From NCBI RefSeq assembly GCF_017876815.1, contig NZ_JAGIOS010000003.1, positions 1,200,001-1,232,000 of the forward strand: a DNA stretch of 32,000 nucleotides. The letters run 5' to 3'. This stretch comes from Sinorhizobium meliloti (lineage in GTDB: Bacteria > Pseudomonadota > Alphaproteobacteria > Rhizobiales > Rhizobiaceae). The notes under the pieces are model-generated. The model did not search any database, was not told the origin of the DNA, and saw only the letters and a program-made list of their open reading frames with translations. Position 1 is the first letter of the stretch. Each line of letters starts with the position of its first letter. The position numbers and the translations under genes were made by a program. Below, one piece after another: positions 8,912 through 32,000 of the stretch.

Positions 8912-9088
8912 GCAGACTTCGCTCAACCAATTGCACTTTGCTTATCGGTTTCACCAAAAATCTTGATGGAACACTGCGGGTGCTCGACGAACAGCAACGG
9001 CGGCCCGCGCTCTACAGCGCCGCGCGTCTTATCAGACGCGCTAAGAGGGAAACCGTGCAGCGCTTTTCCGTCCGGCCCTGCCTAGCGT

Positions 9089-28682: not shown

Positions 28683-29565
28683 ATGTTAGACATGAACCTT
28701 CTGCCGCTCTTCCTGGCTGTCGCCGAGGAGGACAACTTCCGTGCTGCCGCCGATCGCCTCGGTGTGACCCGCTCGGCTGTCAGCCAAGGAATGCGGCGGC
28801 TCGAAGATGCCTTTGGTACGACGCTCGTCACCCGCACGACGCGTTCAGTTCGCCTGACCGAAGCGGGGGAGCGTCTGCGCGAGGCTCTGTCGCAGCCCTT
28901 GTCGGATATTGCGACGGCGCTTCGATCGGGTAGCGGGTGATGAACCCCGCGGTCTCTTGCGGATCGGCGTCACCTCGATCGCCGAGCAATTCCTTTCCGG
29001 TCCGCTCATCGCTTCCTTTGCTCAGGCCCATCCCAAGGTGACGATAGACGTCACCGTCACGGACGAGGAGTTCGATATCGTGGCCGCTGGTTTCGACGCG
29101 GGCGTCAGGCTTGGCGAGGTGATCGAGCAGGACATGATCGCGGTGCCGCTGACGGGCGATCAGCGCGAGCTGGCCGTTGCTGCCCCCGCCTATATCGCAG
29201 TCCACGGCACGCCGGCGCACCCGCGTGAGCTGGTCCATCATCGCTGCATAGGCTGGCGGCGAGCGCCGAATGTCGCGCCCTACAGGTGGGAATTCGAGGA
29301 GAATGGTGTTCCCTTCGACGTGGCGGTCGAGCCCCAGATTACCACCAATGACCTGCGCTTCATGCTCCGCTCAGCCCTCTGCGGGGCCGGGATCACCTTT
29401 GCAACGGAAGAAACGTTCCGCCCGTTCGTAGAAACCGGTGAACTCGTCCCGCTGCTGCAGGATTTCCTGCCCCCATTCCCCGGTTTCTTTCTTTATTTCC
29501 CTCACCGCCGCAACATGGCGCCAAAGATGCGAGCTTTGATCGAGCATATACGGCGGTGGCGATAA
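28683..29565 (+). pseudogene. LysR-family transcriptional regulator with a single frameshift
   Basis: The HTH part (NLLPLFLAVAEEDNFRAAADRLGVTRSAVSQGMRRLEDAFGTTLVTRTTRSVRLTEAGERL...SDIATAL) stops at 28938-28940. The rest (DRVAGDEPRGLLRIGVT...FLYFPHRRNMAPKMRALIEHIRRWR) continues in the +1 frame. The junction is at about 28918-28925. Divergent from the SDR gene. Confidence 0.8.
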
Positions 29566-29615
29566 CCGGCGCTTCCGGCGCAGCGTCGAGAAGGTCCCAC
29601 GCTCGCCCGAATTCC

Positions 29616-29630
29616 TTATCTTTTCTTTAT
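29616..29630 (+). promoter_or_regulatory. T-rich direct repeat (TTAT-N7-TTAT, 11-bp period) upstream of kdp, candidate KdpE-type site
   Basis: ttatcttttctttat lies about 80 nt upstream of the first kdp-associated ORF. OmpR-family regulators bind direct repeats about one helical turn apart. No kdpDE is visible in the window. Confidence 0.25.
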
Positions 29631-29711
29631 GTGGTCGCCAAACCATCCCAATCGATAATTGACGCGGCGCGGGCGCATCATCCGGATCTTGGATCAATCT
29701 GGAGAGTGCCC

Positions 29712-29795
29712 ATGTCCGATTTTCTTTTCCTTGCCGCCGGTATTGGCGGCCTTGCCGCGCTCGCGCTTTATGCGCGCGCCCTGAGCCGGCTTTAG
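29712..29795 (+). CDS. 27-aa hydrophobic peptide, KdpF-like, immediately upstream of kdpF (candidate)
   Basis: MSDFLFLAAGIGGLAALALYARALSRL. GGAGAG lies 6 nt upstream of the ATG. Its TAG stop is embedded in the TAGGAGG RBS of kdpF. Confidence 0.45.
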   Translation: MSDFLFLAAGIGGLAALALYARALSRL

Positions 29796-29804
29796 GAGGG
29801 TCCG

Positions 29805-29891
29805 ATGGCCGAGGCTTTGATCGGGCTCGTCGTCGCCGTCGCGCTCGCGGTCTATCTGATCGTGACGCTTGTCCGGCCGGAACGCTTCTAG
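29805..29891 (+). CDS. kdpF: K+-transporting ATPase subunit F
   Basis: MAEALIGLVVAVALAVYLIVTLVRPERF (28 aa): a single TM helix with the C-terminal PE(R/K)F ending typical of KdpF. AGGAGG RBS. Confidence 0.75.
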   Translation: MAEALIGLVVAVALAVYLIVTLVRPERF

Positions 29892-30020
29892 AGCATTTCC
29901 GCTTTTCTCAGAACCGCGGAAACGCTCCAACCTTTCATTTTGCCGCAACTCCGCACGGAAAACCGCTGCGCGTTTTTCCTGGAATTGCTCGAGCGCTCCT
30001 TCACCCCACGGAGACTTCTC

Positions 30021-31730
30021 ATGTCTGTCATCGGATGGCTGCAGATCAGCCTCCTTTTTCTCGCCGTTCTCGTCGTCGTTAAGCCGCTGGGGCTTTACAT
30101 GGCTGCGGTTCTTTCCGGCGAACGCAATGTCCTTTCGCCGATTCTCCGACCGGTGGAGCGTGGTCTTTATGGTGCCGCCGGCATCGATCCGGCACGGGAG
30201 CAGGGCTGGCTCGCCTACACGCTCTCCATGCTCGCTTTCAGCATTGCGGGCTTTGCGCTGCTTTACGCGTTCCTGAGACTTCAGACATGGTTGCCCTTGA
30301 ACCCGCTGGGCTTCGGCAACGTGCCACCGGACCTCGCCTTCAACACCGCCGTCAGTTTCGTCACCAACACCAATTGGCAGAATTACGGCGGGGAGACGAC
30401 GCTCAGTCACTTCAGCCAAATGATGGGGCTGACCGTGCAGAACTTCGTTTCGGCCGCCACCGGCATTTCGATCGCGCTTGCCGTTACCCGCTCCTTCGCC
30501 CGCTCAGCCGTGCCGACGATCGGCAACTTCTGGGTCGATCTCACCCGTTCGACACTCTACGTCCTCCTGCCGCTTGCCGTGCTGGTGGCGGTCGCCTTCG
30601 TGGCGATGGGCCTGCCGCAGACGTTCCGCGCCTCGGTGGAGGCCACGACCCTCGAGGGGGTGAAGCAGACCATCGCTCTGGGCCCGGTTGCCAGCCAGGA
30701 AGCGATAAAGCAGCTCGGTACCAACGGGGGCGGCTTCTTCAACGTGAATGCCGCACATCCGTTCGAAAATCCGACTGCGCTTTCCAATTATCTCAATATC
30801 TTCGCGATGCTGTCGGTTTCGGCGGCGCTGCTCTACACATTCGGGCAACTCGTCGGCAACCGGCGGCAGGGCTGGGCCTTCATCGCCGTCACCTATGCAT
30901 TTCTGATCATCGGTGTCGGGGTCGTCTATTGGGCCGAAGCGGGGGGAAATCCGGTCCTGTCGCAGCTCGGTCTCGACCCGGCTCTCGGCAACATGGAAGG
31001 CAAGGAAGTCCGCTTCGGCCAGGCGATGACTGCGCTTTACACGACGGTTACGACCGGGCTTTCGGATGGCGGCGTCAACGGCATGCACGGCTCGTTCACC
31101 GGCCTCGGCGGTCTCGTTCCGATGTTCCTCATGCAGCTCGGCGAGGTCCTGCCCGGCGGCGTCGGCTCGGGCCTCTACGGCATGATTGTCTTCGCGATCC
31201 TCGCGGTTTTCGTCGCTGGTCTTATGGTCGGCCGCACTCCTGAGCTGCTCGGCAAGAAGATCGAAGCGCGCGAGATGAAATACGCGATGCTCGCCGTGCT
31301 CATTCTGCCGGCTGCAATCCTCGGCTTCACGGCCATTTCAGCCGTCACGCCCTCGGCCGTCGCCAGCATCGGTACGCCCGGGCCGCACGGGCTCTCGGAA
31401 ATCCTCTACGCCTATACGTCGGCCGCCGGCAACAACGGCTCTGCCTTCGGCGGGCTTTCGGGCAACACGCTCTGGTACAATACGACACTTGGCTTTGCGA
31501 TGCTGCTCGGCCGCTTCGCTTATGCCGTGCCGGTGCTTGCCATCGCCGGCTCGATCGCCGCCAAGACGCGCGCCTCGGCATCCAAGGGTACGTTCCCGAC
31601 CGATACGCCCCTCTTCGTCGGTCTCCTGATCGGTATCATCCTCATTCTCGGCGGGCTGCAGTTCTTGCCGGCGCTCGCGCTCGGTCCGATCGTCGAGCAT
31701 TTCGCCATGCTCTCCGGCCAGACCTTCTGA
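30021..31730 (+). CDS. kdpA: K+-transporting ATPase subunit A
   Basis: [24 protein letters not shown]... and [43 protein letters not shown]. 569 aa. GGAG RBS. The track ORF begins 81 nt upstream at a non-ATG codon. Confidence 0.95.
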
Positions 31731-31741
31731 AGGAACCAGGC

Positions 31742-32000
31742 ATGTCAAACAAACCCAAGACCCCGAACCTCTTCGACCCGAAGATACTCTTCCCGGCAGC
31801 GAGAGCCGCTTTCGTCAAGCTTGATCCGCGCCAGCTCGTGCGCAATCCGGTGATCTTCGTCACCGAAGCCGTGGCGGCGTTGGTGACCCTCTTCTTCGTT
31901 CTCGATGTGGCAACCGACGGCGGCAGCCTGCTCTTCTCGGGCCAGATCGCCGCCTGGCTATGGTTTACCGTTCTCTTCGCCACCTTCGCCGAAGCCGTTG
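31742..32000 (+). CDS. kdpB: K+-transporting ATPase subunit B (P-type ATPase), 3' end outside window
   Basis: MSNKPKTPNLFDPKILFPAARAAFVKLDPRQLVRNPVIFVTE...AAWLWFTVLFATFAEAV matches the KdpB N-terminus. It starts 11 nt after the kdpA stop. Confidence 0.9.
   Translation, partial: MSNKPKTPNLFDPKILFPAARAAFVKLDPRQLVRNPVIFVTEAVAALVTLFFVLDVATDGGSLLFSGQIAAWLWFTVLFATFAEAV

Follow-up and report, generated by a model that had tools for sequence, protein, structure and literature searches.

A 32,000-nucleotide (nt) stretch of Sinorhizobium meliloti DNA (RefSeq assembly GCF_017876815.1, contig NZ_JAGIOS010000003.1, positions 1,200,001 to 1,232,000; hereafter the window) carries, directly ahead of the potassium-pump gene kdpF, a 27-codon open reading frame (ORF) that we call X. 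X belongs to an unnamed small-protein family that is tied to kdp operons, has no family model and is missing from Escherichia coli. Judged by sequence comparison, X is a real gene, held by purifying selection at the amino-acid level and provided with translation signals, and it is linked strictly to kdpF and kdpA in at least four phyla. By analogy with other one-helix peptides, we propose, at a probability of about one half, that X acts in trans as an accessory single-span membrane peptide of the Kdp pump, made with KdpF under K+ limitation. Kdp serves as the model of high-affinity K+ pumping, and no other P-type ATPase is known to work through a channel-like partner; to our knowledge, every Kdp structure, and most of the biochemical work, has been obtained with E. 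coli, a species without X.

A conserved 27-codon gene ahead of kdpF

X occupies 29712..29795 on the forward strand of the window, with its ATG at 29712 and its TAG at 29793–29795, and encodes a predicted single-span membrane peptide, MSDFLFLAAGIGGLAALALYARALSRL. A Shine–Dalgarno site, read from the sequence as GGAGAG (29701..29706, +), lies 5 nt 5′ of the ATG. The Shine–Dalgarno site of kdpF, AGGAGG (29794..29799, +), shares the last two bases of the X stop codon, and kdpF itself (29805..29891, +) encodes the 28-amino-acid (aa) subunit F of the K+-transporting ATPase, MAEALIGLVVAVALAVYLIVTLVRPERF. An earlier note, made from the DNA letters alone, had described this layout, and its description stands: the kdpF product passes the cut-offs of both Pfam PF09604 (E 5.1e-10, 39.4 bits) and TIGR02115 (34.7 bits), identical S. 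meliloti plasmid records label 29805–29891 as kdpF, the upstream 27-codon frame with a GGAGAG site of its own is present in the sequence and in the ORF list, and the X stop codon does fall inside the ribosome-binding site of kdpF.

The length of the ORF alone is unremarkable, because high-GC DNA keeps frames open and long random ORFs are common in it: the X frame of the window reaches back without a stop to a GTG at 29556 (79 aa), and the open frame spans 79–117 codons. For comparison, we collected 80 kdp loci from species-representative genomes (KdpA 57–84% identical, all alphaproteobacterial by title or context), located kdpF in each and took the ORF ending just 5′ of it; the comparison set used below holds 75 loci, namely 74 relatives and the window. 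A 26–27-codon homologue of X is found in 74 of the 75 loci with a kdpF pattern match and in four loci without one, in which kdpF ends in PEWF, PEMF or SEKF and had escaped the pattern; these four were moved from the background to the X-positive set. X is therefore present in 78 of 79 assessable alphaproteobacterial loci, the exception being L075, with the truncated locus L066 not counted. Conservation of the frame in relatives with the same kdp organization, the check that the earlier note had proposed, is thus borne out.

First, the reading frame of X relative to that of kdpF differs among loci (37, 19 and 19 loci), with all three frames used, so what is conserved here is a peptide, neither an RNA nor a kdpF prolonged at its 5′ end.

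Second, the DNA of X varies in the manner of coding sequence. Entropy at codon positions 1, 2 and 3 is 1.23, 0.91 and 1.43 bits, against a flat 1.93 bits in the 78 nt upstream, and GC content by codon position is 0.62, 0.39 and 0.78 in X and 0.70, 0.37 and 0.79 in kdpF. Synonymous changes make up 0.25 of the codon differences in the X frame, compared with 0.10–0.12 in the other frames.

Third, translation signals accompany the ORF. Of the 75 loci, 72 begin X with ATG and 3 with GTG, and in 70 a Shine–Dalgarno-like motif lies 4–17 nt 5′ of the start. The spacer between X and kdpF measures 1–18 nt in 72 of the 75 (median about 10 nt), and the Shine–Dalgarno-like motif of kdpF lies at or beside the X stop codon in 67. 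In Xanthobacter autotrophicus and one uncultured alphaproteobacterium (loci L040 and L041), 55–65 nt are inserted between an intact X and kdpF, and the insert of L041 carries a GC-rich inverted repeat.

Fourth, particular residues are retained. The family consensus is M-L-D-x3-L-A-x-G-x2-F-F-x-L-x3-Y-x2-A-C-D-R-L, in which M1 is conserved in 100% of members, D3 in 97%, L7 in 76%, G10 in 69%, F14 in 86%, Y20 in 97%, C24 in 78%, R26 in 74% and L27 in 78%, and X residues are kept from Alphaproteobacteria to Deinococcus and Actinomycetota. Residues 4–24 of the 27 form a hydrophobic core, with a hydrophobic stretch of about 20 residues, between an acidic N-terminal end (net −1) and the C-terminal R26.

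The DNA upstream bears on the true start of X. A direct repeat, TTAT-N7-TTAT in an 11-bp register (CCTTATCTTTTCTTTAT; 29614..29630, +), is nearly invariant in an alignment of seven Rhizobiaceae-type loci, and the DNA 5′ of this box is not conserved. In the window, CCTTATCTTTTCTTTAT is followed by CCCAATCGA (29647..29655, +), a variable leader, the Shine–Dalgarno site and the ATG. With up to 4 mismatches allowed, the box is matched in 12 of 75 upstream regions and in none of 75 controls inside kdpA; 11 of the 12 matches sit 92–103 nt 5′ of the X start, and looser forms, CTTTAT-N5-TTCCTAT and TTTAT-N6-CTAT, recur in Bradyrhizobium-type loci. The second motif, with 0–2 mismatches, lies 60–65 nt 5′ of the X start in Sinorhizobium-type loci and is a candidate −10 region or promoter element; a generic sigma-70 scan gave no promoter in the region of this motif. 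The box resembles what we take to be the E. coli KdpE site, and we read it as a putative response-regulator site of the KdpE type, hence as the presumed K+-limitation promoter of the operon. Within the S. meliloti group, the residues just before the methionine of X vary (RVP, RMP, RMS, RIP), and the 27 residues of X differ at one position. Longer annotated forms, of 67 aa (SM2011_a2335, WP_275598604.1) and of 77–79 aa in other strains, are probably gene-calling artefacts, because their starts fall inside or before the promoter.

Breadth of the family and linkage to kdp

The breadth of the family was assessed with a profile built from the 75 alphaproteobacterial X peptides only and scored on small ORFs next to kdpF elsewhere; the background, about 2590 further small ORFs of these loci and all of it high-GC alphaproteobacterial DNA, reaches 6.0 bits at most. 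Peptides of Burkholderia arboris (27.0 bits), B. stagnalis (28.2 bits), Mycetohabitans (19.3 bits) and Paracoccus (15.8 bits) score on this profile, as do those of Deinococcus radiodurans (20.2 bits) and D. psychrotolerans (18.9 bits), of Nonomuraea (20.1 bits) and Streptomyces (13.1 bits), and of Subdoligranulum (Clostridia; 15.5 bits), Bacillus badius (10.6 bits) and Bacillus sp. (9.4 bits). None of 1000 shuffles per peptide reaches the observed profile score. Beyond the Alphaproteobacteria, recognizable homologues stand next to kdpF in Betaproteobacteria, Deinococcus, Actinomycetota and Bacillota. In metagenome contigs scanned with a profile of diverse KdpA sequences, 80 kdp loci were found, 72 of them with enough upstream DNA, and 64 of these 72 have an X of at least 9 bits directly 5′ of kdpF. 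The earlier note, which looked to the Rhizobiaceae, considerably underestimated the scope of the feature: X is not peculiar to the Rhizobiaceae.

The linkage also holds when genomic context is ignored. All five members found by the profile alone, blind to context, are followed by kdpF-kdpA-kdpB, and in every locus examined X is accompanied by a kdpF-like ORF, so that X comes in addition to KdpF and never instead of it. The order of the genes is less fixed than their company. Two Burkholderia loci have kdpF-X-kdpA (B. arboris, L088 967–1173; B. stagnalis, L194 around 670–873), and Deinococcus has kdpB-X-kdpF-kdpA-kdpC; in neither case is X parted from kdpF and kdpA, though it need not lie 5′ of kdpF. 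The KdpA encoded in the Burkholderia kdpF-X-kdpA locus is closest to Deinococcus KdpA (56% identity). X and kdpF overlap, at ATGA, in Mycetohabitans (4 nt) and Rhodococcus.

X-like ORFs also precede kdpF in the Bacillota loci of Listeria innocua plasmid pLI100 (L192), Bacillus badius (L193), Bacillus sp. (L111) and Subdoligranulum (L109); these begin with M-(x)-D-[IVF]-[IVFY]-M, have a longer polar tail, often with W-C-[DN], and score between 2 and 15.5 bits. The loci examined from E. coli K-12, Halobacterium, the cyanobacterium Trichormus and Lactiplantibacillus contain no X-like ORF. A few loci, L075 (2150–2480), L145, L168 and L183, have a good kdpF and no recognizable X, which suggests that some lineages can dispense with X or have put something else in its place.

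A proposed role in the Kdp pump and its alternatives

As an accessory peptide of the pump, X would be the first gene of a K+-limitation-induced operon, X-kdpF-kdpA-kdpB-(kdpC). Its product is probably a translated 27-residue inner-membrane peptide with a single span, the N terminus out and the C terminus in, and would be produced together with KdpF. It would pack, through one conserved helix face (D3, L7, G10, F14, Y20, C24, R26 and L27), on the membrane domain of KdpA or KdpB and would sit beside KdpF in the pump, stabilizing or tuning the complex. Joint production is expected because, in 67 of 75 loci, X ends within or next to the site at which ribosomes bind for kdpF, and the topology is suggested by the acidic N-terminal end and the C-terminal R26, as in KdpF. 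Upstream of X lies the putative KdpE box, with nothing conserved beyond it, and the leader lengths given for Caulobacter and Mycobacterium smegmatis permit X on the kdp transcript. We infer that X is translated when K+ is limiting, that it enters the membrane in this orientation and that it binds the pump. On the analogy of KdpF, of CydX and of the single-span peptides that partner other P-type ATPases, the role of accessory peptide is the best-supported reading; small peptides of one helix whose genes lie inside the operon of a membrane complex are typically found to be its subunits, as with KdpF and CydX (reviewed in PMC12648545). Low-level ribosome occupancy is observed in non-limiting medium at the annotated X locus of S. 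meliloti 2011, SM2011_a2335, and counts in favour of this proposal: ribosome profiling (Ribo-seq) gives 22.7 and 48.7 reads per kilobase per million (rpkm), against RNA values of 27.4 and 24.5, for a translational efficiency of 1.4, all computed over the 67-aa long annotation and from a culture that was not induced (PMC10117765 Table S6).

Several observations weigh against the proposal. The Ribo-seq values carry the two limits just given. The Kdp pump of E. coli works without X, so X is not essential to the pump mechanism. The S. meliloti clade itself is without the family cysteine C24, the most conserved residue of the cytoplasmic end, with ALSRL instead of ACDRL, and so not every feature of the family applies to the peptide of the window. 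The conservation of X along the peptide gave no statistically clear signal of helical periodicity. The background for the profile scores comes from high-GC alphaproteobacterial DNA only, and the scores of Rhodococcus (5.8 bits), Listeria (2.0 bits) and Cupriavidus (0.2 bits) are not significant; each of these three has an ORF with the architecture and position of X, and homology there rests on those alone. A more far-reaching form of the proposal, in which X is a stoichiometric fifth subunit in most bacteria and the ancestral complex was KdpXFABC, with X lost in Enterobacteria, is tentative, and we would lean against it; under it, the E. coli structures and the textbook 'heterotetramer' would stand for a reduced form of Kdp.

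The peptide could instead regulate the system in trans, either by binding KdpD, in a feedback like that of MgrB on PhoQ, or by modulating KdpB in the manner of sarcolipin and phospholamban. The conservation, coding signature and kdp linkage of X fit such a role equally; two-hybrid assays reportedly show mycobacterial KdpF itself binding KdpD (PMC3618439, PMC10730256), and other families of P-type ATPases have single-span regulators (PMC10654040). However, X stays by kdpF and kdpA even in the rearranged operons of Deinococcus and Burkholderia, and its tight coupling to kdpF predicts output matched to that of the structural subunits and not to that of the regulators. On balance, we regard a regulatory role as unlikely, though as the main rival of the accessory role.

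A different possibility is that X works chiefly in cis, as an upstream ORF (uORF) whose translation opens the kdpF-kdpA start region or delivers ribosomes to it, protects the leader from Rho or targets the mRNA to the membrane, the peptide itself having no function once released. The position of the X stop codon, inside or beside the kdpF Shine–Dalgarno site in 67 of 75 loci with spacers of 1–18 nt, would suit such a device; these stops and the ATGA overlaps are compatible with translational coupling, which is common among the subunits of a single complex too. For the Caulobacter kdp operon, control by Rho and a sharp fall in reads after kdpF have been reported (PMC8552747), and the stretch before kdpF is treated as a functional 5′ untranslated region (5′UTR) in Caulobacter and in M. 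smegmatis. Against this, D3, F14, Y20, C24, R26 and L27 are kept across phyla while synonymous sites vary, a pattern that a pure coupling device would not require; X lies 3′ of kdpF in two Burkholderia species; and L040 and L041 keep X intact across 55–65 nt. An Rfam scan of 29400–30200 at E≤10 returned chance matches only; no Rfam family covers the region, and neither an Rfam family nor a terminator-like site lies between X and kdpF, where 1–18 nt leave no room for a terminator. A purely cis-acting X is therefore improbable, and a cis effect could coexist with a function in trans. Membership of X in the class of attenuator or leader uORFs is unlikely too, since the order kdpF-X-kdpA, the lack of a terminator and the family-wide conservation of residues speak against it.

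X might also be a diverged tandem duplicate of kdpF occupying a second KdpF-type site. The two peptides are similar in length (27 versus 28–29 aa), their genes are adjacent, and both have an acidic residue at position 3–4, a tyrosine near the cytoplasmic end and a charged C terminus. At the level of sequence, however, they do not meet: an hhalign comparison of the two family alignments covers 3 columns at a probability of 2.4%, KdpF peptides do not exceed 4.5 bits against the X profile, those X peptides that were tested against the KdpF profile reach about 5 bits at most, and neither X nor any of 16 homologues matches PF09604 or TIGR02115 even at E≤10. The KdpF tail is [RK]PE[RK]F, with P25 and E26 invariant in 71 KdpF sequences, whereas X ends in A-C-[DE]-R-L (ALSRL in the window), with no proline and without the invariant P-E pair; the absence of a PE(R/K)F tail had been seen correctly from the window alone. 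Membership of X in the KdpF family was rejected on these grounds. What the two share is architecture only, a single hydrophobic helix of about 25–30 aa whose gene neighbours kdpA within the kdp operon, and this is no evidence of membership. Deinococcus, Actinomycetota and Bacillota already have the two as separate families, so that any duplication behind them would be too old to detect, and we consider this origin very improbable.

A type I toxin-like peptide was likewise tried and rejected, as X always lies inside the kdp operon and matches to PepG1/Hol-Tox were noise only (E 2.9–9.9, in one distant homologue). That X is a functionless chance frame in GC-rich DNA, as a frame open over 79–117 codons and the lack of a family model might suggest, is refuted by the conservation, coding-signature and linkage data and deserves next to no credence.

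These comparisons also sort the identities that the earlier note had offered for X. A 'KdpF-like' ORF or 'diverged paralog' does not survive the hhalign result and the lack of a PF09604 or TIGR02115 match, and a 'leader peptide' is unlikely for a gene whose amino-acid sequence is kept across phyla and which follows kdpF in two Burkholderia. Of the third identity, an 'unannotated extra subunit', the extra subunit is the best reading, whereas 'unannotated' was not wholly right, since S. meliloti 2011 has the over-long SM2011_a2335.

Annotation, surroundings and known systems

In databases, X is present under other guises. The peptide of the window matches no Pfam or NCBIfam model, and X together with 16 homologues gave noise only against these models. 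A profile search of 5.8 billion proteins, with a query alignment headed by the 79-aa open frame of the window, returned 565 matches at E≤1; all 120 matches listed of the 565 are unnamed or called 'hypothetical protein' and have no Pfam domain, and all 20 database sequences inspected consist of X behind a spurious N-terminal extension. HMMER over 1.84 billion cluster representatives gave 2865 matches at E≤0.001, with 842 at E≤1e-10, and among the best 150 of the 2865 the X match always ends within one residue of the protein C terminus. A tblastn search of plasmids with the 27-aa peptide found no match. The window comes from an S. meliloti megaplasmid, and many plasmid records of the species match its positions 29400–30400 at 100% identity. 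The annotation of S. meliloti 2011 gives X as SM2011_a2335, an over-long 67-aa 'hypothetical protein', and SMa2335 of strain 1021, which adjoins kdpA, is presumably the same ORF. In Mycetohabitans endofungorum (L086, 1008–1112), the 34-aa homologue WP_212667346.1 is named 'potassium ABC transporter ATPase' in RefSeq, a name that misleads for a one-helix peptide.

Full-text literature searches turned up no paper on the X peptide, and reviews from 2023–2025 give the complex as KdpA, KdpB, KdpC and KdpF only. The main texts of the S. meliloti Ribo-seq paper and of a 2026 uRBS paper do not mention kdp; a 'kdpF' match in a supplement proved to be a chance K-D-P-F string within another protein. In Caulobacter crescentus, the stretch 5′ of kdpF has been taken as a 'highly structured' 5′UTR of about 100 nt (PMC8552747), and in M. 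smegmatis the mapped start gives a 120-nt 5′UTR before kdpF (PMC5401905), where the mis-annotated MSMEG_5391 covers the leader and kdpF. X is found at the corresponding place in the relatives Phenylobacterium, Streptomyces and Nonomuraea. As 100–120 nt would fit a leader, an 84-nt ORF and a spacer, and as relatives have X, comparison with them indicates that both published leaders probably contain the X ORF.

Downstream of kdpF in the window, a 129-nt spacer (29892..30020, no strand assigned) separates it from kdpA, in place of the 7–30 nt found in most other loci. The spacer consists of a rhizobial intergenic repeat: del Val et al. 2007 (PMC2780559) give candidate A4, from between kdpA and SMa2335, as 'Repeat Sm-5'. 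With a predicted fold of two hairpins (−35.6 kcal/mol, z −2.47), it is an insertion outside the conserved design of the operon. A related motif occurs at 9055–9070 on the reverse strand. Mechanical ORF calling runs a TTG-started ORF, 29940–31730, through the repeat (17 residues), and the annotation of strain 2011 turns the repeat into a bogus protein of 41 aa, SM2011_c00661. The K+-conducting subunit gene kdpA follows at 30021..31730 (+; TIGR00680, E 1.3e-225, 750 bits; annotated as kdpA in S. meliloti records). Then comes the 5′ part of kdpB (31742..32000, +), placed by correspondence with the annotation of CP050559.1, with its start 12 nt past the kdpA stop codon; it exits the window.

Directly 5′ of the kdp promoter lies a LysR-family regulator gene (28683–29565, +) that is frameshifted relative to S. 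meliloti RCAM1115 (CP050559.1) by a 1-nt insertion, an extra T near 28921. The insertion yields two ORFs, 28683–28940 and 28909–29565, and the gene is either a pseudogene or the product of a sequencing error.

The 'four-subunit' KdpFABC has probably had an overlooked small partner in most bacteria. A fifth, widely conserved membrane component would change the parts list of the pump for studies of its structure, evolution and physiology in rhizobia, Caulobacter, mycobacteria, Streptomyces, Deinococcus and Bacillus, and would turn the published 'structured 5′UTRs' before kdpF in Caulobacter and mycobacteria into coding sequence. With X recognized, thousands of 'hypothetical protein' calls that are too long would be set right, and the family illustrates how conserved genes are hidden by the 90-nt floor on gene length in annotation. 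It is also easy to test: X is one 27-codon gene with a clear inducing condition, and purification protocols already exist.

Among known systems, KdpF is the best model for the likely working of X. E. coli KdpF (b4513, 29 aa), which stabilizes KdpFABC, is like X in its size, its single hydrophobic helix and its adjacency to kdpA; X would also share its co-transcription with the pump genes, and the two have the same predicted orientation, with an acidic N-terminal and a basic C-terminal end. They differ in that no sequence relation between them is detectable and in the M-x-D start and Y-x2-A-C-[DE]-R-L end of X.

A parallel in gene arrangement comes from Clostridium acetobutylicum, whose kdp operon reportedly has two small hydrophobic ORFs, orfZ and orfY (kdpZ and kdpY), before kdpA and whose complex is said to have six subunits. 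Two small ORFs ahead of kdpA is the arrangement of the window, and Subdoligranulum, of the Clostridia, and several Bacilli have an X-like ORF 5′ of kdpF, so that X may have its clostridial counterpart in orfZ; if it does, the accessory role would gain direct support. PMC5401905 cites the operon under the name kdpZYABCXDE, and the later reviews consulted do not carry the arrangement over to other bacteria.

Further models come from outside Kdp. Sarcolipin and phospholamban, which act on SERCA, FXYD proteins, which act on the Na,K-ATPase, and yeast PMP1 are peptides of about 30–50 aa with one transmembrane helix that attach to the membrane domain of a P-type ATPase and tune or stabilize it (PMC10654040). 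KdpB is a P1A-type ATPase, and these eukaryotic partners are unrelated to X in sequence; binding of X to KdpB is pure conjecture. MgrB, SafA and PmrR, short membrane peptides that regulate sensor kinases or enzymes, come from a regulon and act back on the membrane sensor of that regulon, and they are the model for a regulatory X; they are usually separate transcription units with no translational link to structural subunits, and X shows no similarity to them in Pfam or NCBIfam. CydX and CydH of cytochrome bd oxidase and AcrZ of AcrAB-TolC are small one-helix proteins, encoded or regulated together with a membrane complex, that annotation long missed and that later proved to be subunits (PMC4325964, PMC7267776). 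They belong to other complexes and have no sequence similarity to X, and their association was proven by experiment, whereas that of X is proposed here.

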